64,000 bases of DNA from a virus. Under the pieces are notes generated by a model that searched no databases, was not told the DNA's origin, and saw only the letters and a program-made list of their open reading frames with translations. The stretch spans positions 47,057 through 111,056 of IMG/VR virus record IMGVR_UViG_3300036820_000005. One strand, given 5' to 3'. This document shows, in pieces, positions 24,827 to 51,846 of the stretch (positions within the stretch are counted from its first letter, which is position 1; every line of letters begins with the position of its first letter). A program made the position numbers and the translations under genes.

Positions 24827-24834
24827 ATGACGGG

Positions 24835-26367
24835 GTGGCAGTGGTAGCGGTCAGCGCGTGGGAGTATGCGGCCCGCCAGTTCGAGCCGAAACCCCGCACG
24901 TACGTTTCCCCGCTCGCGCTCGCAAAGCACCTCGACCCGCGGACCGGGACCAGCGCGGCGCTGAGGCTCATCGACCAGGCCCTCGTCGCCCTAGCCGACG
25001 GCGACACCCCCGAGAACGCCCTCCTGGTCACGATCCCGCCGCAGGAGGCCAAGAGCACGACCATCGTGCGCCGGTTCCCCGAATGGCTGCTCGACAACGA
25101 CCCAGCCTGCCGGATCGCCATCGCCAGCTACGAGCTCGACACTGCCGTCCGGTGGGGCCGCGACATCCGCCAGGACATCCAGCAGTCCGACGGGAAGCTC
25201 GACATCCCGTTCCGCCCCGACGCCACCGCGATGGCCAGGTGGGAGACACCCCAGGGCGGCGGCGTCTACTGTGTCGGCGTCGGCGGCCCGCTGACCGGCC
25301 GCGCCGTCGACGTGCTCCTGGTCGACGACCCCGTCAAGGACCGCGCCGAGGCCGAATCGGCGAAGATCCGGCAGAACATCTGGGACTGGTGGGAGTCCGT
25401 CGCCCTGACCCGCCTCGCACCCGGCGCCCGCACGGTGCTCGTCATGACCCGCTGGCACGAGGACGACCTGGCCGGCCGGATCCTGTCCCGGCCAAGCCCG
25501 CTGAAATGGCGGGTCCTGAAGATCCCCGCCATCGCCGAAGCCGCCGACCCGCTCGGCCGCCGGCCAGGCGAGGAACTGGTCTCGGTCCGCGGCCGGGAAG
25601 CCGGCTACTTCCTGAACCTCCGCGCGACGATGAGCCCGTACACGTTCTCCTCGATCTACCAGCAGTCCCCCACCGCGGCGGAAGGGAACTTCTTCCGCAG
25701 GGCCACGTTCAGGTACTGGCGGCCGGCCGTGTCGTGGTCGGACGGCCGGGTCCGCCTCGACCTCGAAGGCCGCATCGTCACCCTGCCGGACTGCTGGCGG
25801 TTCGGCACCGTCGACGTCGCCGCCAGCGTCAAGACCAGCGCCGACTACACGGTCATCAGCATGTGGGCGGTGTCGCCGGACGGAGACCTGATCCTCCTCG
25901 ACCGGGCCCGCCAGCAGGTCGCGGAACACGACCACTTCGCCCTCGCCCAGGGCCTGTTCGACTCGTGGGGGGAATGCCAGCTGTACGTCGAGCGGCATTT
26001 CTTCGCCACCACCCTGGTAACTGACGCGCAGGCCGCCAACATCCCCGTTGCCGAGGTCGTCGCCGACACCGACAAGGTCACGCGCGCCATCCCCGCCGCC
26101 GGCCGGGTCCACGCGGGCCGGGTGTGGTTCCCCGCAGAGGCGTCCTGGCTGGACGAGTGGACCGACGAGCTGGCCTCCTTCCCGAACGGCACGCACGACG
26201 ACCAGGTCGACACGCTCTCCTACGCGGCCAGGGTCCAGTCGGCCGAATGGACGCCGCCGCGGCCGCCGCCCCGGCCAGGCGTCGACCCGCACGAACGGGC
26301 CATCAACATCGCCGCACGCTCGGCGACAGGCGAAGACGGGTTCGACCCGATGACCGCCCAATGGTAA
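24835..26367 (+). CDS. terL: Terminase large subunit
   Basis: Walker A-like PPQEAKST, Walker B LLVDDP, MTRWH, nuclease D...HDDQVD. Confidence 0.95.
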   Translation: MAVVAVSAWEYAARQFEPKPRTYVSPLALAKHLDPRTGTSAALRLIDQALVALADGDTPENALLVTIPPQEAKSTTIVRRFPEWLLDNDPACRIAIASYELDTAVRWGRDIRQDIQQSDGKLDIPFRPDATAMARWETPQGGGVYCVGVGGPLTGRAVDVLLVDDPVKDRAEAESAKIRQNIWDWWESVALTRLAPGARTVLVMTRWHEDDLAGRILSRPSPLKWRVLKIPAIAEAADPLGRRPGEELVSVRGREAGYFLNLRATMSPYTFSSIYQQSPTAAEGNFFRRATFRYWRPAVSWSDGRVRLDLEGRIVTLPDCWRFGTVDVAASVKTSADYTVISMWAVSPDGDLILLDRARQQVAEHDHFALAQGLFDSWGECQLYVERHFFATTLVTDAQAANIPVAEVVADTDKVTRAIPAAGRVHAGRVWFPAEASWLDEWTDELASFPNGTHDDQVDTLSYAARVQSAEWTPPRPPPRPGVDPHERAINIAARSATGEDGFDPMTAQW

Positions 26368-28899: not shown

Positions 28900-28937
28900 G
28901 ACCGTGGCAGCGACAGGTCGGCGGCGGTGGAGGTGGG

Positions 28938-31148
28938 ATGGCGCAGCAGCAGTTCAGCGGCGCCCCCACCTCCGACATGGGCACCCCGGACCTGTACTGG
29001 GGCACCTGGGGCCAGGGACTCCTGTCCGAATGGTGGGAGACCGCCCCGCAGCTGATCTGGCCCGAAGCCGTCATCACCTACGGGCGGATGCGTCACGACC
29101 CCCAGTGCAAAGGGGTCCTGTCCGCGTACAAGCTGCCGCTGATGCGCGCCACCTGGGCGATCGACCCGGCAGGCTGCCGCGACGAGGTAGTCCAGCTCTG
29201 CTCAGAAGACCTGGACCTGCCGATCCTCGGCAACGCCGACGACGACTCGTGGAACGCCGACAACGACGGCCAGCCTGCCCGGACCAGCGGCGTGACGTGG
29301 AAACGGCACCTGTCCCAGGTGCTGCAGTACCTCGAGTTCGGCCACATGATCTTCGAGCGCAAATACCAGATCGTCGGCGACCAGCTGCGGCTGCTCGCGC
29401 TCGGCGAGCGGATGCCGTGGACCGTGGCCAGGATCATGCTCAACCAGGACGCCACGATCAACCACCTCGTGCAGTACATGCAGGAAAAGCCGATCCCGGC
29501 GAACCGGCTGGTCTGGTACGCGCACGAGCACGAGGGCGCGAACTGGGCCGGGTTCTCCCTGCTGCGGTCGGCGTTCGCCCCGTGGCTGCTGAAGCACGAA
29601 TGCTGGCGGGTGCTGGCCACGTCGATCCGCCGGTTCGGGATGGGCGTCCCTACCGTCGAAGCGCCGCCCGGCGCGACGCAGAACCAGGTGCAGCAGGCCA
29701 GCAGCCTCGCCTCCAGCATGCGGGTCGGCGACATGTCCGGTGTCGGCCTGCCCAGCGGGTTCAAGTTCAGCCTGGCCGGGCTGACAGGGAACGTGCCGGA
29801 CTCGCTGGCGTTCATCCAGTACCTCGACGGGCAGATCGCCAAGCAGGCCCTGGCCGGGCTGATGGAGCTCGGCGACACCCAGAACGGCAGCAGGGCGCTC
29901 GGCGAGACGTTCCTTGACCTGTTCCTCCTGTCCCTGCAGGGCGTCGCCGACGAGATCGCGACCGCGGCGACGGTCGGCTGGCCGCAGATGCCCGGCATCC
30001 TCGCCGACCTCGTGGCCTGGAACTGGGGCGCCGACGAGCCAGTCCCGAAAATCGTCTGCACCGACGTAGGCGAAAACTACGAGGTCTCCGCCCAGGCGAT
30101 CGACCAGCTGGTGCAGCACGGCGCACTCGACCCCGACCCGACCCTGGACGCCTGGATCCGCAAGGCATGGCGGCTGCCCGCCCGCGACCCCGACGCGCCG
30201 TCCAGCCTCCCGCCGAAGCCGGGCCCGCCCCTCGGGCCGGAGCCGGGGCCCGGCGGCGGGCCCGCCGGAGACCAGGCCCCCGCCAGCCAGGGACAGGCAG
30301 GAACGGCAGCGAGCCGCCGCTCAGGCAGGCACCGGGCCGCCGCGCCGGGCGGGTTCCGCCGCCAGCCGACACAGATCGAGGCGGCCTCCGGGTTCGACCC
30401 CGCCATGGTCCGGCAGGAATGGCTCGACGCCCGGACCGCCCTGATCGCCTCATACAAGCTGCAGGTCCTCGGCGGCCTGCAAGACGACCTCGCCGGGCAG
30501 GTTGAGGCCAGCGTCCAGGCCGGGCAGCTCGGCAAGCTCGCCTCGCTGACCGTCGACACGGACGCGGCCGCGACGCTGATCGGCGGGGCGATGCTCGGCC
30601 TGGCCCGCACCGCGGCGAACCGGGCGCGGGCCGAAGCCGCGTCGCAAGGCGTCAAGATCCCCGCCGCCGGGGTGGCACTGCCCGAGGCGAAGATCGGCCA
30701 GGTCGCCGCGGCCAGGGCCGGGCTGCTCGGCTCCTGGTGGGCGCAGCAGGCCAGCGGCAAGGCCCTCCAGGTGTCCGCGGCGGCCGCCCACCCGCCCCTT
30801 CCGGTTCGGCTGCCCGCCGACATCGCCGACCTGATCCGCGAGTTCCTCGAGGGGCTGTCCGACGCCAGCCTTACCGACCAGCTCGGCGCCGCGCTCACCG
30901 CAGGCCAGAACGTCGGCCGGATCTCCGTCATGGAAGCCGCGGCCGCGTCGGGCGGGACCGCCCAGTACGTGGCCACGGAGATCGAGGACGACAACACCTG
31001 CAAGCCCTGCCAGGACGAGGACCAGCGCGTGTTCGCCAGCCTCGCCGGCGCGCAGGCCGCCTACCCGTCCGGCGGCTATATCGGCTGCCTCGGCGGGATG
31101 CGGTGCCGCGGCACGGTCATCGCCTACTGGGGAGGGCTGACGCCATGA
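28938..31148 (+). CDS. Portal protein (Mu gp29/DUF935-like) fused to MuF-like minor head domain
   Basis: G-x-SLLR...RRFGMGVP, GSRALGE; Pro-rich linker; C-terminal DDNTCKPC...C-x4-RCRG. Confidence 0.85.
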   Translation: MAQQQFSGAPTSDMGTPDLYWGTWGQGLLSEWWETAPQLIWPEAVITYGRMRHDPQCKGVLSAYKLPLMRATWAIDPAGCRDEVVQLCSEDLDLPILGNADDDSWNADNDGQPARTSGVTWKRHLSQVLQYLEFGHMIFERKYQIVGDQLRLLALGERMPWTVARIMLNQDATINHLVQYMQEKPIPANRLVWYAHEHEGANWAGFSLLRSAFAPWLLKHECWRVLATSIRRFGMGVPTVEAPPGATQNQVQQASSLASSMRVGDMSGVGLPSGFKFSLAGLTGNVPDSLAFIQYLDGQIAKQALAGLMELGDTQNGSRALGETFLDLFLLSLQGVADEIATAATVGWPQMPGILADLVAWNWGADEPVPKIVCTDVGENYEVSAQAIDQLVQHGALDPDPTLDAWIRKAWRLPARDPDAPSSLPPKPGPPLGPEPGPGGGPAGDQAPASQGQAGTAASRRSGRHRAAAPGGFRRQPTQIEAASGFDPAMVRQEWLDARTALIASYKLQVLGGLQDDLAGQVEASVQAGQLGKLASLTVDTDAAATLIGGAMLGLARTAANRARAEAASQGVKIPAAGVALPEAKIGQVAAARAGLLGSWWAQQASGKALQVSAAAAHPPLPVRLPADIADLIREFLEGLSDASLTDQLGAALTAGQNVGRISVMEAAAASGGTAQYVATEIEDDNTCKPCQDEDQRVFASLAGAQAAYPSGGYIGCLGGMRCRGTVIAYWGGLTP

Positions 31149-33643: not shown

Positions 33644-34609
33644 ATGTCTGGTTACACCTACCCGCCGCTCCCGCCGACGTTGTCGGGTGATCTGGAGACC
33701 ATCTCCCGGTTCCTCCAGTCGCCGACCCAGATCCGCAGGCGCCTCCGCGACTACGTGGACCTGAGGTTCATCAGCGACCAGATCCTGACGAACCGGTGGA
33801 ACTCGACCGGCGGCGCGGCCCTGTACGAGCAGACCGAACCTTTCGTCACGGATAGGCCCGTTCAGTCGGTTGCCCCCGGGTCCGAGTACCCGCAGGCAGA
33901 CGCCCCGACCGGCACCGGCGGCATCGCGGCCGTCCAGAAGTGGGGCCAGATGGTCCCGCTCACCGACGAGCAGATCGACAGGAACGTTTACGCAGGTCAG
34001 ATAGTTGACCGGACCTTGCAGAAGGTGGTCAACTCGGTGATCGCCCAGGTCGACAACATCACGATGTCGGCCGTCATGAGCACCGTCTCCCTCGAGGTCT
34101 CCCCGACCGCGGCATGGGACGGGTCCGGCGATGCGGCGCCGACGATCCTGCGGGACGTCCTGCTCGGCGTCCGGCAGATCACCGGCCAGCTGCAGGGCTA
34201 CAACCCGGACACGCTGCTGGTCACCGACGTCATGTACGCCTACATGATGTCCGACCTCACCGTGTCGAACCTGCTCAAGCGCGAGGACAGCACCAACCCG
34301 ATCTACACCGGTGAGATCGAGATCCTGTCCGGGCTGACGCTGGTCCACTCGCCGCACGCCCCGAACGACCCGCTGATCCTGGACTCGGCCGAGTTCGGCG
34401 GAATGGCCGACGAGATCTCCGGCTCCCCGGGCTGGGCGATCTCCGACCTGGCCGTGCAGATCAAGTCGATCCGCAACGACCGCCGCGACCGCTGGGAACT
34501 CCAGGGCAGAAGGATCACGGTCCCGATCATCCAGAACCCGAACTCGGCCTGCGCGATCCTTGGCGCGTCCGGGTCCGAGGGCGGCGGCGAAGGGAGCTTC
34601 TCCGTATGA
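33644..34609 (+). CDS. Major capsid protein
   Basis: 321 aa; YP...L-x-SPT, VAPGSEYP, KWG-x6-DE, Y-x-PDTL; position. Confidence 0.85.
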   Translation: MSGYTYPPLPPTLSGDLETISRFLQSPTQIRRRLRDYVDLRFISDQILTNRWNSTGGAALYEQTEPFVTDRPVQSVAPGSEYPQADAPTGTGGIAAVQKWGQMVPLTDEQIDRNVYAGQIVDRTLQKVVNSVIAQVDNITMSAVMSTVSLEVSPTAAWDGSGDAAPTILRDVLLGVRQITGQLQGYNPDTLLVTDVMYAYMMSDLTVSNLLKREDSTNPIYTGEIEILSGLTLVHSPHAPNDPLILDSAEFGGMADEISGSPGWAISDLAVQIKSIRNDRRDRWELQGRRITVPIIQNPNSACAILGASGSEGGGEGSFSV

Positions 34610-34890: not shown

Positions 34891-35433
34891 GTGGCGGCGC
34901 TGACGTGGGCGCCGACGCTCGCCGACGTCGCCCGCCACATCCCGACCCGCACGAGGGACACCCGCACGCCCGGGTCGGACCAGCTGCTCAACACGTTCAC
35001 CGAGTCCACCACGCCGTCATCTGACGCGGCGCAAGGGTTTATTGACGACGCTGTCCAGTGGGTCCTGGCCAGCGCGGGTGCGCTGCCGACGAACCTGCCG
35101 CCGACCGACGAGATCATGGTCGCCGCCCGCACCGCCGCCGAATGGCGGGCCAGCGCGGACATTGAGGTGGCGTATCCGAACCGCGACATGGATGTCCAGC
35201 TGTTCCGGACGCTGGACCAGCGGGCCAAGGACGCCCTCTCCACCCTGATCTCGGGGCTGCAGAAGGAAAACGAAGGCGTCATCGAGCTCGTCCCTGTGTG
35301 GAGCATGCCGCCGCCCTGGGCCGGGTCGATGGGCTCTGCGTATGGTCGCGCCGCCGAGATCGTGGCGCACGGCTTCTCCGACATGACCTGGCCGTTCCCC
35401 GGCCAGGGCTCATACCCCGACATCGGTTTCTAG
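34891..35433 (+). CDS. Head-to-tail adaptor
   Basis: WAPTLADVA...RT...F-x-x-x-T-x-P; position. Confidence 0.7.
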   Translation: MAALTWAPTLADVARHIPTRTRDTRTPGSDQLLNTFTESTTPSSDAAQGFIDDAVQWVLASAGALPTNLPPTDEIMVAARTAAEWRASADIEVAYPNRDMDVQLFRTLDQRAKDALSTLISGLQKENEGVIELVPVWSMPPPWAGSMGSAYGRAAEIVAHGFSDMTWPFPGQGSYPDIGF

Positions 35434-35447
35434 CCAGGAGGCAGACG

Positions 35448-36071
35448 ATGACAGCCACCTACACCCAGCCGTCCCCGGTCGCTACCGCGGAGGACGGCGA
35501 GGAGACCGGCGACCTCGCCTTCCCGTTCCACCAGCACGGCATGCCGCCCATGCTCGCGCCGACCGGCCTCACCGGCGCTGTCGCGGCCAGCCGGTACGTC
35601 GGCGCGACCGCCAGCGGCCACCCGACCGCCGGGACGTTCGCTGTCGGGGATGTCGTAGTGGACCAGACCGGCGCGTGGTGGTTCTGCACCGTCGCCGGGA
35701 CGCCCGGCACATGGGTGTCGCCGGCCGGGCCCGCGCTGTTCTCCGCGATGACCGCAGTCGCGCTGACCGACGCGGCAACCGTCGCCGTGAACGCCGCGCT
35801 CGGCAACCTGTTCCGCGTCACCCTGGCCGGTAACCGGACCCTCGGCGCCCCGACGAACCCGACCGACGGGCAGACGATCGACTTCGAGATCACGCAGGAC
35901 GGCACGGGTTCGCGGACGCTCGCCTACGCCTCCGCGTACGAGTTCTCGACCACGCTGGCGTCGCCGACGCTATCCACCGCGGCGGGGAAGGTGGACCTGC
36001 TGTCGTTCCGGTACAGCTCCGTCGCGTCGAAGTGGCGTTGCAAGCTGATCGACCTCGGGTTCGCGAGCTGA
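35448..36071 (+). CDS. Virion fibre/whisker-like protein
   Basis: PTAGTF-x-x-GD...C-x-x-AGTPGTW module plus C-domain shared with 20072..20779. Confidence 0.7.
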   Translation: MTATYTQPSPVATAEDGEETGDLAFPFHQHGMPPMLAPTGLTGAVAASRYVGATASGHPTAGTFAVGDVVVDQTGAWWFCTVAGTPGTWVSPAGPALFSAMTAVALTDAATVAVNAALGNLFRVTLAGNRTLGAPTNPTDGQTIDFEITQDGTGSRTLAYASAYEFSTTLASPTLSTAAGKVDLLSFRYSSVASKWRCKLIDLGFAS

Positions 36072-36091
36072 CCGGCGTTACCGGCAACGCG

Positions 36092-36445
36092 ATGAACCCC
36101 ACCCAGTCGAACCACAACGTCACGACCGGCCCGGCAGCAGGCGCCACGCTGGCGTCGCTGACCGGGCTGGCCGCGGGCCGGTACGACATCACCGTGTACG
36201 CCTACCTCGCGGGCACGGTCACCGCGGCCGACGCCGACAACGTGGAGCTGCTGGTCGACGGGTCGGTGACCGATGTCCTCGCCGTCCCGCCTGTCGCCGC
36301 AGCCAGCGGGGTGCCCGGCCAGAAGTTCGAGCACATCACGACGACCGGGGCGATCAAGCTCCAGGCCGTCGGCGCCGGCGGCGGGTCCGCCGTCTACCAC
36401 ACGCTCCTCGTCGCCGCCACGCCCGGAGACTACGTGCCGGAGTGA
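36092..36445 (+). CDS. Small beta-rich structural protein
   Basis: GC3-biased ORF; start uncertain. Confidence 0.55.
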   Translation: MNPTQSNHNVTTGPAAGATLASLTGLAAGRYDITVYAYLAGTVTAADADNVELLVDGSVTDVLAVPPVAAASGVPGQKFEHITTTGAIKLQAVGAGGGSAVYHTLLVAATPGDYVPE

Positions 36446-36447
36446 GA

Positions 36448-36469
36448 CTGCCACGCCCGCGTAGAAACT
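36448..36469 (+). promoter_or_regulatory. Putative late promoter CTGCCAC-N9-GAAACT
   Basis: Upstream of the lectin and ParB-GNAT-PanD genes. Confidence 0.65.
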
Positions 36470-36511
36470 CAGGGCTCGTCTAGACACGATCCCCTACACG
36501 GGAGGGCAGAA

Positions 36512-37675
36512 ATGCTCAGAAGGCTCACCGGCACGATGGCGCTCACGCTGCTCGCAGGGCTTGGCCTGGCGGTCAGCGGGAACGTCGCCGCCGCAACGGC
36601 GGCGTCAGCCGGCACTCCGCTGGTCAGCGCGACGACCAGCATCGCGAACGACCCCGATACCGGCGGCAACGGCACCTGGGCCGACGACGACTTCACCAGG
36701 ACGCTGACGGTCAGCACCGACCCGACGAGCAGCGACTGCGCGGCACTCGCCGGCTGGACCGCCTCGGCCGACGTCTGCTACTCGGCGGCCATCACGGACG
36801 CCGGGACCGCGAACACGGTCGTCAACGCCTTCCAGCCCAACCAGGGCAGCAGCACCCTGGCGGACCAGACCGGCGACAAGATCACCGGCCCGTCCGAAGG
36901 GGTGCCGTTCACCGGCACCGCCAGCTACCAGTTCTACGCGCCAGCCGGCGGCATCCCCTCCGCCGCGGACGTCCCCGCCACGCTGAACGACAACTTCGCG
37001 AAGCCTTCCGGAGCTGCGAGCACGTCGGAGTGGTACCTGGAGGCGTTCGCCGCCACCGGCCGCACAGGTGTCTACACGGGCGGCATCGGGAACTGGTCGT
37101 GGACCTACGCCGATTCCTGCGAGTCGTGGACCGACGCGAACACGAACAGCCAGGGGCAGTCGACGCCGCTGTCGGACGACGGGAACATCACCGGCAAGGC
37201 CTGCGCGACCCCCGCCGGGTTCAGCGGCGGCCAGGGCGACGTGATCAACCGGTTCGGCAACGGCCTCGACGTCCGCGACCAGCGGCCCGCGGTGAACAAC
37301 CTGATCATCGCCTACCCGGTGACGGGCACCGATCCGGCCGTCCAGTTCGACGTGATCCCGGTCGGGGACGGCTGGGCGTTCGAGTACGCGCCGCTCAAGG
37401 TCGACTCGGGGCTGTGCGTGTCCGAGGCAGTCGGCAGTGAGCCTGCCGGATCCAACCCGACCGGCCTGGTACTGCGGGACTGCCTGTGGAACAAGTTCCA
37501 GCGGTTCACCCTCAGTGTCGGCGCGAACGGCAGCTTCCAGCTCGTCAACGCGGCCACCGGCCAGACGATCCAGCCGAACGGCACCCGCGCCCAGATCACC
37601 GGGGAAAACACGCTGAGCAACGTGGCCGGGTCGTGGTGGGCGTGGAACACGCCCGGGTCGGCACCCGCCGCGTAA
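36512..37675 (+). CDS. Secreted protein with C-terminal ricin-B-like lectin domain
   Basis: Signal peptide (RR, hydrophobic core, ASA); SGLCV...LRDC...QRF...LVNAATG. Confidence 0.7.
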   Translation: MLRRLTGTMALTLLAGLGLAVSGNVAAATAASAGTPLVSATTSIANDPDTGGNGTWADDDFTRTLTVSTDPTSSDCAALAGWTASADVCYSAAITDAGTANTVVNAFQPNQGSSTLADQTGDKITGPSEGVPFTGTASYQFYAPAGGIPSAADVPATLNDNFAKPSGAASTSEWYLEAFAATGRTGVYTGGIGNWSWTYADSCESWTDANTNSQGQSTPLSDDGNITGKACATPAGFSGGQGDVINRFGNGLDVRDQRPAVNNLIIAYPVTGTDPAVQFDVIPVGDGWAFEYAPLKVDSGLCVSEAVGSEPAGSNPTGLVLRDCLWNKFQRFTLSVGANGSFQLVNAATGQTIQPNGTRAQITGENTLSNVAGSWWAWNTPGSAPAA

Positions 37676-37689
37676 GACAAGAAGACCTG

Positions 37690-38235
37690 ATGCCTGCCCG
37701 CTGGGTTGAGACGCGGATGATCCCGCTCGACGAGCTGACCCCGTTCCCGGGTAACGCCCGCCGAGGCCTCATCCCGAAGATCCAGGATTCGCTCCGGCGG
37801 AACGGGCAGTACAGGTCGCTGGTGGTCCGCCAGGACGGCGTAGCACTCGTCGTCCTGGCGGGCAACCACACCATGCAAGCCCTCGCAGCCGAGGGGCACG
37901 CTGAGGCCCGCTGCGACGTGATCGAATGCACGGACCAGGAAGCCCGCCGGATCAACCTGGCCGACAACCGGCTATCCGACCTCGCCACCGACGACAAGCA
38001 GGCCCTCGCCGACCTGCTCGCCGAGATCGACGACCTCGAAGGCGCCGGGTACACCGCCAAAGACGTCGAGAAGCTCACCGGCACCCCGCCGGGTCCTGAA
38101 CCCGGCGAAGCGCCCGTAGACGACCTGGAGACGGTGTGGGGCGTGATCATCGAATGCGACACCGAAGCGCAGCAGGACGCCCTGATCGCCCGGTTCACCG
38201 GCCAGGGCCTCGACGTCCAGCCGCTGACGGGATGA
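37690..38235 (+). CDS. ParB/Srx N-terminal-domain protein (copy 1)
   Basis: L-x-PFPGNARRG...SL-x-x-NGQY...VLAGNH...ADNRL. Confidence 0.9.
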   Translation: MPARWVETRMIPLDELTPFPGNARRGLIPKIQDSLRRNGQYRSLVVRQDGVALVVLAGNHTMQALAAEGHAEARCDVIECTDQEARRINLADNRLSDLATDDKQALADLLAEIDDLEGAGYTAKDVEKLTGTPPGPEPGEAPVDDLETVWGVIIECDTEAQQDALIARFTGQGLDVQPLTG

Positions 38236-38239
38236 CCTG

Positions 38240-38764
38240 ATGCCCGCCCGGTGGATCGACACCCGGGAACTGCCGATCGACGAGCTGACCCCGTTCCCCG
38301 GCAACGCCCGCCGCGGGAACGTCGACCTGATCCGCCAGTCGGTCCGCCGCAACGGCCAGTACCGGTCCCTCGTCGTCCGCGCCGACCGGGGCGCCTTCGT
38401 AGTCCTGGCCGGGAACCACACGATGCGTGCGCTCGCCGCCGAGGGCCACACGACTGCCCGGTGCGAGCTGATCGAATGCACCGACCAGGAAGCGAGGCGG
38501 ATCAACCTGGTCGACAACCGCCTGTCCGACCTCGCCACGGACGACAAGACAGCGCTCGCCGCCCTGCTCGCCCTGCTCGACGGGGACCTGGAAGGCACCG
38601 GTTACACCGCGAAGGACGCCGAGCTGATGAAACCGCAGAAAGGCGACACAGAGCTGTTCAGGCTCTACGGCGTGATCATCCGCGTCCCCGCCGAGGAGCA
38701 GCAGCTCCAGCTGCTCGAGCAGCTGTCCGGCGAGGGCCTGAACGTCCGCGCGCTGATCGCATGA
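38240..38764 (+). CDS. ParB/Srx N-terminal-domain protein (copy 2)
   Basis: Tandem paralog with clearly similar DNA and protein. Confidence 0.9.
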   Translation: MPARWIDTRELPIDELTPFPGNARRGNVDLIRQSVRRNGQYRSLVVRADRGAFVVLAGNHTMRALAAEGHTTARCELIECTDQEARRINLVDNRLSDLATDDKTALAALLALLDGDLEGTGYTAKDAELMKPQKGDTELFRLYGVIIRVPAEEQQLQLLEQLSGEGLNVRALIA

Positions 38765-38779
38765 CCCGAGGAGAGCCCT

Positions 38780-39862
38780 GTGAAAGCTGACTTCACCCTG
38801 ACCTGCCCGATCGAGAAGTCAGGGCGGGTGATGCAGCTCGCCTCACTGTTCGACCTGCCCGTCGAGGCGAAGGCCAGCGTCCACGTGCAGGCGTCCCTGC
38901 CGGTCGAGGAACGCGACTGGAACGTCGGCCTGATCGTCGGCCCGTCCGGCGCCGGCAAGTCGTCGCTGGCCCGGCACCTGTGGCCCGGCCAGGTCGTGAC
39001 CGGGTTCGACTGGCCCGACGGCCGGTCCCTGGTCGACGCGTTCCCCGCCAGCATCGGGATCCGCGACGTGACCGGCCTGCTGACCGCTGTCGGCCTCGGC
39101 TCCACGCCGACGTGGCTGCGGCCGTACTCGACCCTGTCGACCGGCGAAGCGTTCCGCGCGACCATCGCCCGCGCGCTGGCCGAAACCGGCGACCTGATCG
39201 TCGTCGACGAGTACACCAGCGTGGTAGACCGGCAGGTCGCCAAGGTCGCCTCCCACACGGTCCAGAAAGCGGTCAGGCGGGCCGGGCGGCAGCTCGTCGC
39301 GGTCACGTGCCACTACGACGTGGAGGAGTGGCTGCAGCCCGACTGGGTGTACGACGTGGCCGCCGCCGAGTTCCGCTGGAGGTCCGTTCAACCCCACCCA
39401 GAGCTCCACCTTGAGATCTACGAGAGCGGGAAAGCCCTCTGGCCCGTGTTTGCGCGCCATCACTATCTGAGCGGCGCCCTGTCCGGCGACGCGGAATGCT
39501 ACGCCGGGTGGATCGACGGACGGCCGGTCGCGTTCACCTCGGCGATCCCCTGGTCAGGCAAGACCAGCCCCGTGATGAAAGGGCACCGGCTGGTCGTCCT
39601 GCCCGACTACCAGGGCCTCGGGATCGGCGGCAGGCTCGACGACTGGCTCGGCCAGCTGCTCTACCGGCGGGGCCTGCGGTACCGGAACACGGTCGCCCAC
39701 CCGCTGATGGTCCGGTTCTACTCCCGGTCCCCCAGGTGGCGGGCCACGGCGAAGCCGATGAGGCAGCTCGGCGCCAGCCACGACGGGCAACGCCACCAGT
39801 GGCAGAACCCGCGGCTGCTCGGCACCTGGACATTCGAGTACGTGCCCACGAGGGAGGGGTAA
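38780..39862 (+). CDS. ABC-type ATPase fused to GNAT (Mom-like) acyltransferase
   Basis: GPSGAGKS, LSTGE, IVVDE, VTCH; FARHHYL; RLVVLPDYQGLGIG. Confidence 0.9.
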   Translation: MKADFTLTCPIEKSGRVMQLASLFDLPVEAKASVHVQASLPVEERDWNVGLIVGPSGAGKSSLARHLWPGQVVTGFDWPDGRSLVDAFPASIGIRDVTGLLTAVGLGSTPTWLRPYSTLSTGEAFRATIARALAETGDLIVVDEYTSVVDRQVAKVASHTVQKAVRRAGRQLVAVTCHYDVEEWLQPDWVYDVAAAEFRWRSVQPHPELHLEIYESGKALWPVFARHHYLSGALSGDAECYAGWIDGRPVAFTSAIPWSGKTSPVMKGHRLVVLPDYQGLGIGGRLDDWLGQLLYRRGLRYRNTVAHPLMVRFYSRSPRWRATAKPMRQLGASHDGQRHQWQNPRLLGTWTFEYVPTREG

Positions 39863-40224
39863 TGCTGAGGACCTGGGTGACCGCGAAGCTGCACGGGATC
39901 ACCGTCACCGCCGCCAGCGTCGACTACCACGGGTCGGTGACCATCGGCGCCGACCTGATGGACGCCGCCGGCATCGAGCACGGCGAGCAGGTCCACGTGG
40001 TGAACCTGTCGACCGGCGGCCGGTGGGTGACCTACGCCCTGCCCGGCCCCGAAGGCGTGTTCACGCTGAACGGCGGCGGCGCCCGCCTCGGCGTGCCCGG
40101 AGACAAATGCGTGGTCATGACGTTCGGCCTTGCCGAGCACGCGCCCGGCGCGGCTGTCGTGTTCTGCGGCGTCGGCAACGAGGCGATCGACCAGGCGTTC
40201 TACCCGGCCGGGCTGCCGCGGTGA
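39862..40224 (+). CDS. panD: Aspartate 1-decarboxylase
   Basis: K9, H11, G24-S25 self-cleavage site, R54, T57, Y58, NGGGAR; TAATG overlap. Confidence 0.92.
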   Translation: MLRTWVTAKLHGITVTAASVDYHGSVTIGADLMDAAGIEHGEQVHVVNLSTGGRWVTYALPGPEGVFTLNGGGARLGVPGDKCVVMTFGLAEHAPGAAVVFCGVGNEAIDQAFYPAGLPR

Positions 40225-40925
40225 GAATCCTCGAACTCGGGTCATACGTGGTCGTCGGGTACGCCGGCCTCCTGCTGGCCGAGCAAGGCCACCAGGTCAC
40301 GAAATGGACCGCCAGCCACCCCGACCCGATCGAGGGCCTGCACCGCGGCCCGGAACTGTGGGCGTGGATCAACCACGGCAAGACGCTGACCGAACGGCAC
40401 GCCGCCACCGTCGGAGACGCGCTCCTCGCAGACGAGTTTGACGCGGTGATCGATAACATCCGCGCCGACACGTGGGCGAAGTGGGGAGTCCGGCCGGGAT
40501 GCCTGGCCGCCGCGCTCGACCTGACCTGGGTGTCGATGCGCGACGACTTCGACGGCCGGTCCTTCGACGCGATCGCCCAGGCCCGCGCCTGGGGTGACCA
40601 CCTCGGCTACCTCCCCGCATACCTCGGCGACACCACAGGCGGCCTGTGGCTCGCCTACAAGCTCCTGGCGGCCCCTCCAGGCCACCACATCCTCCGGCAG
40701 GCCGCATGCCTCGCCAAGCTCGTCGAGGGCGAGCTGGTCGTCCCGCCGCCGACCCCGCGGCAGGGGCCCGGCGGCGAACCGCCATGGGACCAGGCCGGCA
40801 CCTACGGGCAGGACGGCGACGGCACACGGGTCTGGTACCGCGGCGCAGAGGTCCGGGAGCCGTTCCGTGACACGGAATGGCGGCGGACCAATTTGCGCCA
40901 TTCCGGCGGCCGTTACGTCATCTGA
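40221..40925 (+). CDS. Family III CoA-transferase (CaiB/BaiF-like), short form
   Basis: RILELG...LLAEQG-x-x-V-x-K, NHGK, D-x-VIDN-x-R, FD-x-x-AQA, LGD-x-x-GG; GTGA overlap. Confidence 0.85.
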   Translation: MRILELGSYVVVGYAGLLLAEQGHQVTKWTASHPDPIEGLHRGPELWAWINHGKTLTERHAATVGDALLADEFDAVIDNIRADTWAKWGVRPGCLAAALDLTWVSMRDDFDGRSFDAIAQARAWGDHLGYLPAYLGDTTGGLWLAYKLLAAPPGHHILRQAACLAKLVEGELVVPPPTPRQGPGGEPPWDQAGTYGQDGDGTRVWYRGAEVREPFRDTEWRRTNLRHSGGRYVI

Positions 40926-41018
40926 CGCCCGGGTAATACCCGCGTCAATTATTGCGCTCTCTCTATTCGCCGAATAGCCGGTCAATTAGAATTTGATTGT
41001 AAGCAAAAATAAACCGGC
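40922..41018 (+). promoter_or_regulatory. AT-rich promoter module P2
   Basis: TAGAAT at 40987; aligns with P5; TAAGCAAAAA as in P1/P3. Confidence 0.7.
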
Positions 41019-41033
41019 GAAATGGAGTGCGAC

Positions 41034-41369
41034 ATGAATACCGCGCAGAAGCTACAGCGCCAGCCAGTCCTGCTAGCAGCAGTGAAGGCCCACGCGCAGG
41101 CGAATAGCGCGAAGGGCTGGGACATCCTCGGCGTCTGCGACGACGCGGAAATCGTCGAGCTGATCGGCTGGTCGGAAACGCCGGAGAGCGCGATCGCGAA
41201 AGTGGCGAAGGCCCTCGGCCTCCACGTCCAGGCGGCGACGGCCCCGGCCAGGGGCCGTTGCACCGAGCGCGTCGTGTTCATCGACGACCGGGCGGTGTCC
41301 ATGCACTACGACTGCCCCCTGCACGTCCAGTACACGGAGCGTGAGCGGTACGACCTCCTCCCCGTCTGA
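41034..41369 (+). CDS. Phage protein, paralog of 26484..26897
   Basis: HAQANSAKGWD...EIVELI...AIAKV. Confidence 0.75.
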   Translation: MNTAQKLQRQPVLLAAVKAHAQANSAKGWDILGVCDDAEIVELIGWSETPESAIAKVAKALGLHVQAATAPARGRCTERVVFIDDRAVSMHYDCPLHVQYTERERYDLLPV

Positions 41370-41378
41370 CCGTGACCA

Positions 41379-41425
41379 GCCCGGCAGGCAGGCAGCCCCG
41401 GTTCGAGCCCGGGGCCGGGCACGCA
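41379..41425 (+). ncRNA. Mini-tRNA-like element R3
   Basis: GCCCGG-CAGGCAGGCAG-CCCCGG-TTCGAGC-CCGGGG-CCGGGC-ACGCA. Confidence 0.75.
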
Positions 41426-41447: not shown

Positions 41448-41912
41448 GTGAAGGTCCTGTCCGTACGCCAGCCGTGGGCTGGCGCCATCATGCTCGGCCT
41501 GAAGCCGGTCGAGAACCGCAGCTGGGAGCCATGGGAGAAGGTCGACGGCGGAAGGGTGAAGTTCCGCGGCCGGCTGCTGATCCACGCGAGCGCCCGGCCC
41601 GACAGCGACGGCCCGCGGTTCATCGCCAGCCTCGGCATCCGAATGCCGCATGACCTGCCGATGGGCGTCATCCTCGGCAGCGTCGAGCTGTACGACGTCG
41701 TGACCGATAGCCGGTCGCCGTGGGCCGAGCCCGGCCAGAAGCACTGGCTGATGCGCGACCCGAAGCCGTGGCTGCGGCCGATCAAGGCGAACGGCGAGCT
41801 GGGCCTGTGGGAGTGGGACGCGGTCCCAGGCGGCGGGCCGGTCCAGGCCCGCCGTGACCCGCCTGCACCGCCGCCGGATCAGGGCGGCGTAGTGCCGGTC
41901 TGGACCGTCTGA
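41448..41912 (+). CDS. ASCH domain protein
   Basis: LSVRQPWA...G-x-K-x-VENRSW...RGRLLIHA...G-x-LGLW. Confidence 0.9.
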   Translation: MKVLSVRQPWAGAIMLGLKPVENRSWEPWEKVDGGRVKFRGRLLIHASARPDSDGPRFIASLGIRMPHDLPMGVILGSVELYDVVTDSRSPWAEPGQKHWLMRDPKPWLRPIKANGELGLWEWDAVPGGGPVQARRDPPAPPPDQGGVVPVWTV

Positions 41913-43647: not shown

Positions 43648-43735
43648 CCTGCGAAAACCAGGTCTTTTCGGACTGCCCCTTATTGTCGTGTTCTACACTT
43701 ATGCGATATAATTTCTACATAGTTGAAAATTTCCC
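43644..43735 (+). promoter_or_regulatory. AT-rich promoter module P4
   Basis: CTGACCTGCGAAAA; TTGTCG(43683)-N18-TATAAT(43707). Confidence 0.85.
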
Positions 43736-43827
43736 GAGCCTGCGAGGAGACCAGAGATGCCCAGCAGCCAGGCCGGCACAATCCAACCCCCATCCGAGGG
43801 CGCCACGACCGAAAGGAGCACGCAGCA

Positions 43828-44442
43828 GTGACTGCTGGAACCGCTACCCGCCGTAAGCCGAGGCGCAAGGTCTCGGACGAGCGCGTCCAGGAGATCGAAG
43901 CCCGCCGGGCCGAGATCGAGGCCGCAGCCGAAGCCATAGATGACACCGAGCCGGATTTCGTGGCGTTCCTGGCCCGGTGGGGTGACCGGTACAACGAGAA
44001 CAACCTGCGCCGCCTTTGGGTGCAGGCACCCCGCGCGACGTGCTTGCACAAGTTCCCGACGTGGCGGGGGATGGGCCGCCAGGTCCGCCGTGGCGAGACC
44101 GCGATCATGCTGATGCACCCGCGGACAGGAACCGACCCGGACAAGGTAAGCCCCGCGAACCCGACCGGCGAGGTGTTCTACGGCGCGTCATGGATGGCGC
44201 TGTTCGACTACGCCCAGACCGACCCGATCGGCGACTTCACCGACCAGGCCGACCCGGACGCCGACCCGGCCTTGGTGGCTGAGGTAGCACGCCTGCGGAA
44301 AGCGGCACTCGCCGAGCATCCCGACGTCTCCGCCCCGAACACCGGTCCCACCGATAAGGCGTTCCTGGCCGCGTGTGAGAAGTTCACGGCTGCATGGAAG
44401 CGCTACGAGGACGCCAAGGCGCAGTTGAAGGGCGACCGCTAG
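43828..44442 (+). CDS. ArdC-like N-terminal (ssDNA-binding) domain + C-terminal J-domain-like segment
   Basis: Y-x-x-NN...Q...W-x-x-x-GRQVRRGE...FD-x-x-QT; RKAALAEHPD...F-x-x-x-x-x-x-YE. Confidence 0.75.
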   Translation: MTAGTATRRKPRRKVSDERVQEIEARRAEIEAAAEAIDDTEPDFVAFLARWGDRYNENNLRRLWVQAPRATCLHKFPTWRGMGRQVRRGETAIMLMHPRTGTDPDKVSPANPTGEVFYGASWMALFDYAQTDPIGDFTDQADPDADPALVAEVARLRKAALAEHPDVSAPNTGPTDKAFLAACEKFTAAWKRYEDAKAQLKGDR

Positions 44443-48612: not shown

Positions 48613-48615
48613 CCG

Positions 48616-51600
48616 ATGGCGACATTCGGCGCCGCCATGGCGCAGGCCTTCGTCAGGCTCCGCGTTGACAGCTCTGCCGTCGCAGCGGACACCTCGAAGG
48701 GCATAGAGGAAGGCGCCGGCTCGGCCGATGTCGAGCAGGCCGGGACGTCAGCCGGGACGAAAGCCGCGTCCGCGTTCAGCAAGGCGTTCAAAGTCGGGGT
48801 CCTCGGCGCGATCGCGATAGTCGCCGCGTCGGTCGCTACGGCGGTCGACTTCCAGACCCAGATGACGAAGATCCAGACGCAGGCCGGCGCGTCCGCGTCC
48901 CAGGTGAAGCAGCTATCCCAGCAGGTGCTCCAGCTGGCCCCCTCGACCCAGCAGGGGCCGCTGCAGCTCGCCGAGGCCCTGTACCACCTGAAGTCCGTCG
49001 GCATGGACGACGCGACCGCCATGAAGGACCTGAAGACCGCCTCGGACCTCGCCGCGACCGGCGGGTCGAACCTGGAGCAGACCACCAACGCGCTGGCCGC
49101 GGCGTGGCGGTCCGGGATCAAGGGCGCCCAGAACTTCGGCACGGCCGCCGCCACGGTGAACGCGATCGTCGGCGCCGGCAACATGACCATGTCGCAGCTC
49201 GTCGGCGCCCTGTCGACCGGGATCCTGTCCGCGGCGAACACGTTCGGCGTGTCCATGGTCCAGGTCGGCGGTGCCCTGGCGCTGATGACCGACGAAGGCG
49301 TGCCCGCCCAGCTCGCCGCGACCCGGCTGCGGATGTCCCTGTCGCTGCTCGGCGCGCCGTCCGTCACGGCGTCGAAGCAGCTCGCCTCGATCGGCCTGTC
49401 GTCCACGTCCCTCGCCCAGGCGCTGCGGTCCGGCGGGCTGATCGGCGCGATCGGCCTGCTGAAGCAGCACATCCAGGACGCAGGCCTGTCCGCCGTGCAG
49501 ACCTCCCAGCTGCTGTCCAGGGCGTTCGGCGGCGGCGAGTCGTCCAGCGCGATCCTGACGATGGTCAACAACTTCGCCACGCTGAAGCGGAAGCAGGACC
49601 AGATCAACGCCGGGATCTCCCGGTACGGCGCCGACGTCCAGGCGCAGCGGCAGACCGTGCAAGCCCAGCTCGACCTGCTCAAGTCGTCGTTCGAGACGCT
49701 GGGCATCCGGATCGGCGCGGCTCTGCTGCCGCCGGTGACCAGGTTCGTGACATTCCTGGCCGGCACGGTCGTGCCGAAGGTCGCCGGGTTCGTCCAGCAG
49801 GTCCTGCAGCTCCTCGGCCTCGCCCCGAAAGCCGCCCCGCCGGGGATCAACCGGTCGGCGGGTACGCCTGCCGTGACGCCGATGCTGTCGTCCGTCGCCG
49901 CGACCACCATCGCGATGAAAGGCGGCCTGACCGGGCAGACCGGCACCGCGGCGCAGCTCAACCCGGCGTCGTACACGCAGCCCGCAGCCGCCCAGGCGAA
50001 GCAGCAGGCAGCCCGGACCGGCACGCAGATCGTCAACTCCATCGTGGACGCCCTGGTCCGCGGGGCCGGGAAAATCGGCCAGGCGCTCATCACCATGCTC
50101 GGGAAGATCGACTGGGGCTCCCTCGGCAACATGGCGGTCCATGCGGCGATTCCGTTCATCGTCGAGTTCGTGAACAACTTCATCAACGCGGTCGTGGATG
50201 AAGCCATCCACCATCCTCTCGACCTGCTGATGTTCATCACGGCACTGATCCCCCTGGGCAAGGTGGCGGACATCACGGAGAAGCTGTTCGGCGAGATCCC
50301 GATCCTGGGTCCGCTGGTCAAGGCGATAACCAAGCCGCTGGTCAAGGTCGGCGAGCTGGTCGAGAAGCCGCTGTTCGGGCTGCTGAAGAAGATCTTCGGG
50401 CCACTCGGCGACATCATCGTCACCTCGGCTAAGGACGGCCTGGAGACCGCGTGGACCTGGCTGTTCGTCAAGGGCGACGACCTGATCGGCGGCCTGCTGG
50501 ACGGGGCGAGGGAAAAGCTCGGCGGGGTGCTGTCGTGGTTCGGGCGGATCGGCTCCCGGGTCATCAGCGCGGTCGGGGATCTCGCCGAGAAGCTGCTGAA
50601 ACCCGGCATTGACCTGATCAAGGGCCTCCTGGACGGGGCGAAGGGCAAGTGGGGCGACGCGGCCGCGCTGTTCAAGGGGATCCCGGGGAAGATCCTCGAG
50701 TTCTTCACCGGGTCGTCGAAGCTGCTGGACAAAGCCGGAACCGACCTGATCAAGGGGCTCCTCGACGGAGCGGAGGCGCGCGAGCCGGGGGTGATGTCGT
50801 GGCTGCGGTCGATCCCGTCGAAGATCATCAGCATTTTCGCTGATGCCGGGTCGTGGCTGCTAGACGCAGGCAAGAAGCTCATCGGCGGGCTGATCAGCGG
50901 GATCACCTCGAAACTCGGCGGGATCGGCCACGCCATGGGCTCCATAGGGTCGCTGATCAAGAGCTTCCTGCCGTTCTCCCCGGCCAAGCAGGGCCCCCTG
51001 TCCGGCAAGGGCGACCCGTACTACTCGGGCCTGTCGATCGGCAAGAAACTCGCCGCCGGTATCACCGCGACGCTGCCCGTCCTGAAGAACGCAGTGTCCG
51101 GAACGCTCGCCCAGATCAACTCGGCGCTGTCCCAGGCCGCCACCGAGCAGAAGTCCGGCACGTCCCAGCTGGGCAAGCTCACCTCCCACTACAACAGCCT
51201 CGAAGCCGCCCGCAAGAAGGAAGAGGCCTCGATCGAGAAGCTCGTCCAGGAGCGGTCAGCCGAATACAAGAAGGAAGGCGCGGCATCCGATGCGCTGCGC
51301 GCGCAGCAGGAGCTGGAGATCAAGAGCCTGGAGAAGCTCCGCTCCACCCAGGAAACCCAGGTCAAGCAGACCGAGGCCGTGATCAAGACCCTCCGCGCGT
51401 CGCTGACCAAGCTGAAGGACGAGGTCGACAAGCTGAAGGAGGCAGCTAAAAAAGCCGCCGCCTCATCGGGCAGCTCGTCATCGGACGACGGCTCGTCGGA
51501 CGATCAGCCCCCGGACTGGGCGAACTTCAACCAGTGGCTCGCGGAAACCGGCCCCGCCGGCCCCGGCGGGCCAGCGGCCGGCGGGTCATGGCAGGGGAAC

Positions 51601-51846
51601 CCGGGCCCGCTCGGCGGGTTCGGTCTCGCGTTCGACCAGGACGGCAGGCCGCGCCCGTCCGGCAGGTTCGACGGCCCCCCGCCGGGCTTCGGCCGGCAGG
51701 GCGGCGACCCGCTGATGGCGATGCTGATCGACCGGATGGACCAGGTGGTCAGCACGCTGAGGACGCAGCCGGGGAAGAACGCCGCTGCCACGGCTAGCGC
51801 GATGAACGGTGTGGCCGGGACAGCGATCGTGAGGGGGAACTGGTGA
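48616..51846 (+). CDS. Tape measure protein (TP901-like)
   Basis: AFVRLR-x-D start; TP901 core; amphipathic repeats; LPFSPAK-x-GPLSG. Confidence 0.93.
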   Translation: MATFGAAMAQAFVRLRVDSSAVAADTSKGIEEGAGSADVEQAGTSAGTKAASAFSKAFKVGVLGAIAIVAASVATAVDFQTQMTKIQTQAGASASQVKQLSQQVLQLAPSTQQGPLQLAEALYHLKSVGMDDATAMKDLKTASDLAATGGSNLEQTTNALAAAWRSGIKGAQNFGTAAATVNAIVGAGNMTMSQLVGALSTGILSAANTFGVSMVQVGGALALMTDEGVPAQLAATRLRMSLSLLGAPSVTASKQLASIGLSSTSLAQALRSGGLIGAIGLLKQHIQDAGLSAVQTSQLLSRAFGGGESSSAILTMVNNFATLKRKQDQINAGISRYGADVQAQRQTVQAQLDLLKSSFETLGIRIGAALLPPVTRFVTFLAGTVVPKVAGFVQQVLQLLGLAPKAAPPGINRSAGTPAVTPMLSSVAATTIAMKGGLTGQTGTAAQLNPASYTQPAAAQAKQQAARTGTQIVNSIVDALVRGAGKIGQALITMLGKIDWGSLGNMAVHAAIPFIVEFVNNFINAVVDEAIHHPLDLLMFITALIPLGKVADITEKLFGEIPILGPLVKAITKPLVKVGELVEKPLFGLLKKIFGPLGDIIVTSAKDGLETAWTWLFVKGDDLIGGLLDGAREKLGGVLSWFGRIGSRVISAVGDLAEKLLKPGIDLIKGLLDGAKGKWGDAAALFKGIPGKILEFFTGSSKLLDKAGTDLIKGLLDGAEAREPGVMSWLRSIPSKIISIFADAGSWLLDAGKKLIGGLISGITSKLGGIGHAMGSIGSLIKSFLPFSPAKQGPLSGKGDPYYSGLSIGKKLAAGITATLPVLKNAVSGTLAQINSALSQAATEQKSGTSQLGKLTSHYNSLEAARKKEEASIEKLVQERSAEYKKEGAASDALRAQQELEIKSLEKLRSTQETQVKQTEAVIKTLRASLTKLKDEVDKLKEAAKKAAASSGSSSSDDGSSDDQPPDWANFNQWLAETGPAGPGGPAAGGSWQGNPGPLGGFGLAFDQDGRPRPSGRFDGPPPGFGRQGGDPLMAMLIDRMDQVVSTLRTQPGKNAAATASAMNGVAGTAIVRGNW

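Follow-up and report, generated by a model that had tools for sequence, protein, structure and literature searches.

A PanD and truncated CoA-transferase cassette linked to a phage ABC ATPase-GNAT protein: a candidate system for beta-alanyl modification of DNA

The IMG/VR virus record IMGVR_UViG_3300036820_000005, 111,056 bp in length and ~91% complete according to CheckV, is from an actinobacterial phage. Its final 64 kb (positions 47,057 to 111,056, called the window here and numbered from its first nucleotide) contain a cassette of five genes, which encodes two ParB-like proteins, an ABC ATPase fused to a GNAT domain (ABC-GNAT), an aspartate 1-decarboxylase of the pyruvoyl type (PanD) and a short family III CoA-transferase (mini-CoAT). 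The core of ParB and ABC-ATPase::GNAT is a known and very widespread phage module and is not new; the news is the addition of PanD and mini-CoAT to it. The donor-supply half of the putative pathway, in which PanD and mini-CoAT would provide beta-alanyl-CoA for the GNAT domain, is well grounded in the comparison of homologous loci and sequences, and phage DNA is a plausible acceptor of the beta-alanyl group. For the model as a whole, leading from aspartate to beta-alanine, to beta-alanyl-CoA and to an ATP- and ParB-assisted acylation of phage DNA, we estimate a probability of about 0.4. Of the original prediction of beta-alanyl DNA hypermodification, which was made from the sequence of the window, the donor supply was supported by synteny, clade restriction, a GNAT signature and a chromosomal operon, while the DNA acceptor is retained as a proposal.

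The genes of the cassette are as follows.

37690-38235, + strand: ParB1, 181 amino acids (aa), phrog_723
38240-38764, + strand: ParB2, 174 aa; 4-nt gap after ParB1
38780-39862, + strand: ABC-GNAT, 360 aa; 15-nt gap after ParB2
39862-40224, + strand: PanD, 120 aa; TAATG overlap with ABC-GNAT
40221-40925, + strand: mini family III CoA-transferase (mini-CoAT), 234 aa; GTGA overlap with PanD

The tight packing noticed earlier, with gaps of 4 and 15 nt followed by the TAATG and GTGA overlaps, agrees with the coordinates, and the domain searches bore out the identity of each gene.

Linkage of PanD and mini-CoAT to ABC-GNAT

Mini-CoAT is encoded at 37 IMG/VR loci, of which the 35 with upstream DNA formed the informative set. 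ABC-GNAT is located directly upstream of mini-CoAT in all 35, PanD lies between the two genes in 29, and neighbouring genes of these cassettes are as a rule separated by -4 to +20 nt. A cultured phage of Rhodococcus/Gordonia, Jace, has the cassette as well (gp85-88). It was also seen in genomes of Nonomuraea and Streptomyces and in metagenome-assembled genomes of Acidobacteriota and Hyphomicrobium (L127, L137, L138 and L139); L127 and L137 contain PanD and L139 does not, and in the Hyphomicrobium locus L138 mini-CoAT is ~2 kb downstream of ABC-GNAT, with no PanD match. The original prediction depended on panD and the CaiB-type gene being linked to ABC-GNAT in other phages, and the 35 of 35 viral loci favour this linkage. 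The nucleotide sequence of the cassette gave no match in 50,697 phage records by megablast, and a full-text literature search found nothing relevant on the combination of PanD, CoA-transferase, ParB and GNAT or on beta-alanyl-CoA in phage.

The association is restricted to one part of the ABC-GNAT family. In a tree of 113 ABC-GNAT sequences, all 33 mini-CoAT-linked proteins fell in a single clade of 43 rows (SH-aLRT 92), and three phages with a different accessory gene formed a clade of their own. Of the 34 mini-CoAT-linked rows, 33 have Asn at position 303 of ABC-GNAT, against none of the 9 unlinked members of the clade, and Tyr314 is distributed similarly. Both residues are in GNAT motif B, where their counterparts in the GNAT tabtoxin resistance protein are D130 and Y141; for Y141 of that protein a role as general acid has been proposed. 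The distribution is suggestive of a GNAT signature that tracks the presence of mini-CoAT.

A search by ABC-GNAT similarity alone retrieved 79 loci, 76 of them with downstream DNA, and PanD (with mini-CoAT) was found in just 2 of these 76. The possibility that the GNAT acts as a PanZ-like activator of PanD was rejected as unlikely on this count. Simple boosting of CoA or pantothenate was likewise rejected, given that PanC is absent and that mini-CoAT is strictly linked to ABC-GNAT. The earlier statement that there are no other pan or coa genes holds for PanC (PF02569), which was not found when the whole 111-kb record was searched.

Some loci depart from the simple arrangement. In L015-L020 and L025, two ABC-GNAT paralogues flank PanD and mini-CoAT (e.g. 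L015:878-1978 and L015:3035-4138), being ~52-54% identical to the ABC-GNAT of the window, and in L004 an extra GNAT-only open reading frame (ORF; L004:6365-6895) stands ahead of ABC-GNAT. The paired ABC-GNATs and the extra GNAT suggest more than one acceptor specificity.

PanD matched PF02261 with 98.6 bits (cut-off 25; E 2.8e-28) and aligned from end to end with M. tuberculosis PanD (2c45; E 3.6e-22). K9, H11, the self-cleavage site G24-S25, R54, T57, Y58 and the Asn of the NGGGA motif all align with 2c45, and 13 distinct homologues from phages keep every one of them. The residues that the original prediction had listed for PanD, K9 to Y58, were thus confirmed by both comparisons. PanD is assigned on these alignments to the pyruvoyl aspartate 1-decarboxylase type, with a predicted activity converting aspartate to beta-alanine.

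Mini-CoAT matched PF02515 with 23.6 bits, close to the cut-off of 23.3 (E 3e-5), over residues 1-93 only, corresponding to profile positions 4-105 of 366. It belongs to a family of at least 241 homologues with a constant short length of 208-251 aa, and 85 of the 120 homologues listed carry a precomputed PF02515 label. Searches of PDB sequences by phmmer and by profile gave weak N-terminal matches only. The AlphaFold2 (AF2) model was matched by Foldseek to Rv3272, Mct, Frc, YfdE and CaiB (E 3e-8 to 1e-5; query-normalised TM ~0.6 over ~200 residues), with PDB entries for D169A CaiB and for Asp-CoA adducts among the matches, and we assign mini-CoAT the fold of the family III large domain on the basis of this model. 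Asp137, in the motif YLGDTTGG at the beginning of helix 136-150, is invariant in 26 homologues, and its counterpart in E. coli CaiB is the catalytic Asp169, in an alignment that is weak when taken alone (E 0.063). The Asp of the LGD-x-x-GG motif in the original prediction is therefore retained. The protein ends at a point that corresponds to about residue 262 of CaiB and thus lacks both the small domain and the C-terminal return; mini-CoAT is a truncated variant and no canonical member of family III. The family III enzymes CaiB, Frc, YfdE, Rv3272 and Mct share with it the large-domain fold, the N-terminal CoA-binding motifs and the Asp aligned with CaiB Asp169, but they are 350-430 aa long, in contrast to 234 aa here, and have the small domain of the interlocked dimer and the C-terminal return. 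CaiB is an example that the family can handle amino- and ammonio-carboxylates.

Mini-CoAT is also found on actinobacterial chromosomes. In eight of nine chromosomal loci, from five actinobacterial families, it lies between a GAD-like pyridoxal phosphate-dependent decarboxylase (TIGR01788, 353-363 bits) and an aminobutyraldehyde dehydrogenase (NF010000, over cut-off). Both flanking enzyme types make gamma-aminobutyric acid (GABA), an omega-amino acid. Mini-CoAT is thus coupled to an enzyme making an omega-amino acid in the phage and in the chromosomal contexts, as expected of an omega-amino-acid CoA-transferase. The operon of GAD-like gene, mini-CoAT and aminobutyraldehyde dehydrogenase was observed in L128-L133, L135 and L136, around position 6001 in each; an IDO-like gene is upstream in Lentzea, and one Streptomyces operon has a WYL regulator. 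This arrangement suggests an undescribed GABA-CoA pathway.

The position after ABC-GNAT is occupied by a different gene in three unrelated phage lineages, where a PurN-like formyltransferase (PF00551) follows directly.

L040:1805-2452: PurN-like, Gordonia phage Axumite gp3, annotated as tRNA-methyltransferase
L041:5119-5733: PurN-like, Burkholderia phage phiE255 gp30
L043:4649-5122: PurN-like, Porphyromonas phage

Because either a PurN-like protein or mini-CoAT follows ABC-GNAT, different clades put different group-donor enzymes in one slot, which supports the view that the accessory slot sets the chemistry of the mark.

The ABC-GNAT core, its partners and the putative acceptor

ABC-GNAT matches Pfam ABC_tran and Acetyltransf_1, as well as phrog_11143 (E 1e-98). 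The ABC nucleotide-binding domain comprises residues 1-204 and the GNAT domain residues 209-357 (AF2 model, pLDDT 93.4); the former matches structures of ABC nucleotide-binding domains with Z ~15, and the latter, over residues 209-357, matches 1y9k with Z 15.4. In an alignment of 53 diverse homologues the ABC motifs are invariant or nearly so: Walker A GPSGxGKS (56-60), the ABC signature LSxGE (119-122), Walker B DE (143-144), D150 of the D-loop and CH (177-178) of the H-switch. The GNAT HHY and motif A (RxVVLPDYQGxGIG) are invariant in the same alignment, as are R270, V272, P275, Q278, G279 and G281. The claim that all ABC motifs, HHY and motif A are present was confirmed by this conservation. 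The GNAT half is basic, with an isoelectric point (pI) of ~10.

In a library clustered at 50% identity, no fewer than 650 representatives belong to the family at E 1e-30 or better. The family was found on at least 567 IMG/VR contigs and in 75 cultured-phage records, including phages of Actinobacteria, Firmicutes, Bacteroidetes and Proteobacteria. A ParB upstream of ABC-GNAT was detected in 52 of 73 related loci with the few ParB queries used, and in most loci TerS, TerL and portal come directly after the module. Iyer et al. (NAR 2013), as cited in PMC7824862, predicted that a GNAT coupled with an ABC ATPase modifies a DNA base with an acyl group that is so far uncharacterised. The original prediction, in saying that no pathway of this kind had been described, was overstated for the ParB and ABC-GNAT core, the part covered by that citation. 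The cassette of the window shares with the phrog_11143 module the ABC domain with C-terminal GNAT, the upstream ParB and all invariant family motifs. It differs in the added PanD and truncated CoA-transferase, in the Asn303/Tyr314 signature, in having two ParB paralogues and in its head-tail location instead of a place beside the terminase.

Two inteins were seen or suspected in or beside this module. One ABC-GNAT homologue (P0211, 715 aa) contains an intein (Hint and LAGLIDADG) upstream of the GNAT domain. The cassette-adjacent TerL of L011 (L011:8692-11742; 1016 aa, ~2x the normal length) has terminase matches in two stretches and probably contains an intein as well.

ParB1 and ParB2 are tandem paralogues, 64% identical, each composed of an N-domain of the ParB/Srx nucleotide-binding type and a C-terminal domain of ~45 aa. 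Both match phrog_723 (E 7e-37 for ParB1 and 4e-39 for ParB2), and ParB1 also matches phrog_498, the ParB domain of ParB-methyltransferase fusions (E 4e-22). In Pfam searches ParB1 gave no match, ParB2 reached 17.3 bits with PF02195 (cut-off 26.3), and no helix-turn-helix (HTH) domain was matched in either. Both proteins are acidic (pI 4.4 for ParB1 and 5.3 for ParB2). The Arg of Box II, GxxRxxA, is replaced by His in the motifs AGNHTMQA and AGNHTMRA. A role as partition ParBs was excluded on the loss of this Arg, the lack of an HTH and the short length of 174-181 aa. In P0132 and P0140 a full-length ParB2 homologue forms the N-terminal part of a fusion with ABC-GNAT.

Small ParB proteins without HTH have a precedent as partners of DNA-modifying enzymes. 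The 5mYOX phage thymine dioxygenases have such a ParB encoded adjacent to them, which is needed for activity on double-stranded DNA (dsDNA) (PMC13229309). The likeness to the ParBs of the cassette is one of architecture, with a nucleotide-binding domain followed by a C-terminal domain that carries no HTH. The enzyme partnered with ParB is an iron/2-oxoglutarate dioxygenase there and ABC-GNAT here.

Downstream of the five genes are the following features.

40926-41021, no strand: AT-rich intergenic region, which closes the tightly packed five-gene block
41022-41369, + strand: ORF, 115 aa, between mini-CoAT and the ASCH-like gene
41448-41912, + strand: ASCH-like (PUA-type) protein, phrog_3193

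The ASCH-like protein matches phrog_3193 with E 4e-42 and the Pfam family PF04266 weakly (E 0.085). In the ESM Atlas it has a feature score of 0.94 with 199 shared features, and a structural TM of 0.58 to a cluster made up entirely (100%) of ASCH proteins. At least 30 related loci encode a homologue, which in Jace is gp89; most of these genes are convergent with the cassette and abut its end. The protein is probably an accessory of the cassette and is a candidate for reading or erasing an N-acyl base. Erasure of N4-acetylcytidine (ac4C) in tRNA has been reported for ASCH proteins (bioRxiv 10.64898/2026.02.27.708502), and YqfB, also an ASCH protein, is an N4-acylcytosine amidohydrolase (PMC6972931). 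Since YqfB hydrolyses N4-acylcytosines, cytosine N4 leads among the candidate acceptors. The 115-aa ORF had no Pfam or PHROG match and no homologue among the related loci.

DNA is favoured as the acceptor by several features: the ParB::ABC-GNAT fusions, the usual place of the module by terminase genes, the basic GNAT half and the recurrent ASCH-like gene. The homology of the ParB domain to that of ParB-DNA-methyltransferase fusions, together with the precedent of HTH-less ParBs acting on dsDNA, points in the same direction. No thymidylate-synthase-like gene, TGT, N6/N4 methylase or formyltransferase was found in the 111-kb genome, so that the acceptor would need to be a canonical base. A hypermodification based on hydroxymethyl-pyrimidines was judged unlikely, since the genome has no thymidylate-synthase-like gene or TGT; a TET/JBP search, whose control gave no signal, does not enter into this judgement.

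The proposed mechanism would start with the decarboxylation of L-aspartate to beta-alanine by PanD, whose catalytic residues are present. Mini-CoAT would then use Asp137 to shift CoA from host acetyl- or succinyl-CoA to beta-alanine, as its fold, the invariant Asp and the gene context suggest. In a third step the GNAT domain would take beta-alanyl-CoA as acyl donor, for which the strict synteny, the clade restriction and the motif B signature argue. The acceptor would most likely be an exocyclic base amine in phage DNA, with cytosine N4 leading; the ABC ATPase may clamp or open the DNA in an ATP-dependent manner, and the two HTH-less ParB paralogues may serve as activators or adaptors on dsDNA, as proposed by analogy with the phage thymine dioxygenases. 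The nearby ASCH-like protein might finally read or remove the mark. The product would be a positively charged N-beta-alanyl base (+71.04 Da), which could block restriction or other DNA-sensing defences.

The nearest working analogy is TmcA/NAT10, an NTPase-GNAT fusion that acylates the exocyclic amine of a base from acyl-CoA with ATP hydrolysis. Its ATPase is a RecD-like helicase in TmcA, in contrast to the ABC type here, its substrate is tRNA or rRNA and its donor acetyl-CoA. Mom of phage Mu is a late-acting GNAT-fold enzyme that modifies adenine N6 of DNA for restriction evasion (PMC7261163, PMC7824862). Mom is phage-encoded and has the GNAT fold, as the ABC-GNAT of the cassette does, but is without ATPase, ParB partner and donor-supply genes.

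Points against the model and alternative explanations

Several observations weigh against the beta-alanyl model. On the side of the donor, six cassettes are without PanD, and nine close ABC-GNAT relatives have no mini-CoAT within 4 kb, so ABC-GNAT can evidently work without mini-CoAT. When corrected for phylogeny, the covariation with mini-CoAT comes down to 4 independent, well-supported contrasts, of which Asn303 agrees in 4/4 and Tyr314 in 3/4, with a sign-test p of at least 0.125 (0.125 for Asn303). PanD scored 73.4 bits against the NCBIfam equivalog TIGR00223, under its cut-off of 106, and is therefore placed in a divergent, shorter phage clade. Canonical family III enzymes close their active site with a small domain that mini-CoAT does not have, and the last 65 residues of mini-CoAT are of low confidence in the model; the protein may be inactive or may have another role. 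On the side of the acceptor, the best structural neighbours of the GNAT domain are generic protein and small-molecule acetyltransferases (RimI, Naa10/50), and the cassette of the window stands between head and tail genes, with the terminase genes not adjacent. ABC-GNAT showed no significant similarity to E. coli TmcA (hhalign E 0.032, probability 1.6%) and has no detectable relation to Mu Mom (hhalign E 0.18 over an irrelevant stretch of 35 residues in the ATPase part). Membership of the TmcA/NAT10 family was rejected on the ABC type of the ATPase and this non-significant similarity, and membership of the Mom family on the lack of a detectable sequence relationship. In the literature searched, no experimental test of ABC-GNAT function was found.

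The alternative that survives best keeps the donor pathway and changes the acceptor, which could be an RNA base (of tRNA or rRNA), a protein amine (for instance in a protein of packaging, of the capsid interior or of the host nucleoid), or a small amine, such as a polyamine, that enters the capsid with the DNA. We consider it unlikely, though not negligible. The only characterised ATPase-GNAT enzymes acting on bases, TmcA and NAT10, modify RNA, and the weak match to TmcA (E 0.032) is colinear, running from Walker A to GNAT motif A. The nearest GNAT structures, those of RimI, Naa10/50 and small-molecule acetyltransferases, and the tRNA ac4C erasers reported among ASCH proteins (bioRxiv 10.64898/2026.02.27.708502) fit it too. 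It accounts less well for the ParB-fold partner, which is fused or adjacent in most loci and whose domain is homologous to that of ParB-DNA-methylase fusions, and for the near-constant position of the module beside DNA-packaging genes. A phage-encoded PanD also suggests a bulk, stoichiometric demand for beta-alanine, and this would suit a mark along the whole polymer better than one at a few sites in tRNA.

A second alternative separates the two halves of the cassette: ABC-GNAT would use a host donor such as acetyl-CoA, as is presumably the case in relatives that have no accessory genes, and PanD and mini-CoAT would belong to metabolism, as a supply of beta-alanine or CoA, for buffering of CoA or for the removal of acyl-CoA. 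Auxiliary metabolic genes are generally known to be common in phages, the chromosomal mini-CoAT works without any GNAT, and both the 2 of 76 ABC-GNAT loci with PanD and mini-CoAT and the nine close relatives lacking these genes are as expected of such a division. We nevertheless hold this explanation to be distinctly unlikely. It leaves unexplained that viral mini-CoAT was never found away from ABC-GNAT (35 of 35 loci), that the genes are translationally coupled by the TAATG and GTGA overlaps and that the GNAT active-site signature tracks mini-CoAT. The absence of PanC from the genome also argues against it, and so does the PurN-like formyltransferase in the same slot elsewhere, since that slot appears dedicated to donor or group chemistry.

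Under a third alternative the steps have another order, an aspartyl or other group being activated and attached first, and decarboxylated by the PanD-like enzyme while bound to CoA or to the polymer. In the phage pathways known for thymidine hypermodification, amino acids are reportedly decarboxylated, as a rule, only once they are on the DNA (Lee et al. 2018, 2022). The six cassettes without PanD would be expected if decarboxylation were an optional trimming. The PanD homologues, however, keep all residues that bind free L-aspartate (K9, R54, T57, Y58 and the Asn of NGGGA), and on chromosomes the partners of mini-CoAT are enzymes that yield GABA in free form; both facts make this order improbable.

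A mainly non-catalytic role in packaging or partition, with ParB and the ABC ATPase as a DNA clamp or pac-site factor and the GNAT and its neighbours incidental, would suit the usual position of the module immediately upstream of TerS and TerL and the classical DNA-handling nature of ParB and ABC ATPases, but it is very improbable given the invariance of GNAT motif A and HHY across 53 diverse homologues, the conserved catalytic residues of PanD and mini-CoAT and the distance of the present cassette, ~11 kb downstream of TerL.

Genome setting and significance of the proposed beta-alanyl modification

The genome has a G+C content of ~70%, and nearly every gene is on the + strand. The landmarks of the window are given below.

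24733-26367: TerL
28902-31148: portal gene
33644-34609: major capsid gene
48613-51846: tape measure gene

The cassette is located between the major capsid and the tail genes, ~11 kb downstream of TerL. The capsid gene at 33644-34609 and the tape measure gene at 48613-51846 place it where the original prediction had put it, between head and tail genes. The late promoter motif described upstream of the cassette could not be confirmed: a scan of 35400-41400 with a sigma-70-type consensus found no promoter or terminator, including in the AT-rich region 40926-41021.

Other genes near the cassette were noted. An ORF at 36512-37675 (+), located after the capsid genes and 14 nt ahead of ParB1, encodes 387 aa with a signal-peptide-like N-terminus and a weak match to a ricin-type lectin (E 0.03); it had no PHROG match. 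An ArdC-like anti-restriction candidate (43723-44442, +; phrog_7245, E 1e-4) lies ~2 kb downstream of the cassette, and anti-defence functions may accordingly be clustered in the head-tail insert. Outside the window, the gene at G000:C1:19543-20889 (L140:92-1438) encodes a phage DAM-like domain 1 (PF22555, E 1e-76) and a phage GNAT-like domain (PF22559, E 6e-51). Next after it is the gene of a 440-aa protein with a ParB_N domain (G000:C1:20466-21788; L140:1015-2337). The pair is a possible second ParB-linked DNA-modification unit in the same phage.

In its most specific form, the model states that the virion DNA of the clade, including that of Jace, bears an N-beta-alanyl base, most likely N4-beta-alanyl-deoxycytidine, which would be written after replication by the ParB-activated ABC-GNAT, with beta-alanyl-CoA produced by the PanD and minimal CoA-transferase of the phage, and read or erased by the ASCH-like protein. 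This full statement is doubtful. The naming of beta-alanyl-CoA as the probable donor gives the exact mass shift to be sought, +71.037 Da. The genetic handles are PanD, Asp137 of mini-CoAT and Asn303/Tyr314 of the GNAT, and the occurrence of the cassette in a cultured phage, Jace of Rhodococcus erythropolis, makes the model testable.

ParB and ABC-GNAT, whose chemistry was the subject of the prediction of 2013, are among the most widespread uncharacterised phage gene pairs. If the beta-alanyl model is true, the mark would be the first amide of the aminoacyl type to be known from a canonical base of DNA, and mini-CoAT, with 234 aa, would be a minimal CoA-transferase for omega-amino acids. In sister clades with the PurN-like formyltransferase the mark would be another one, containing formyl. 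The repertoire of DNA modifications would then gain acylation by an amino acid, and the function of the whole ABC-GNAT family would be defined.

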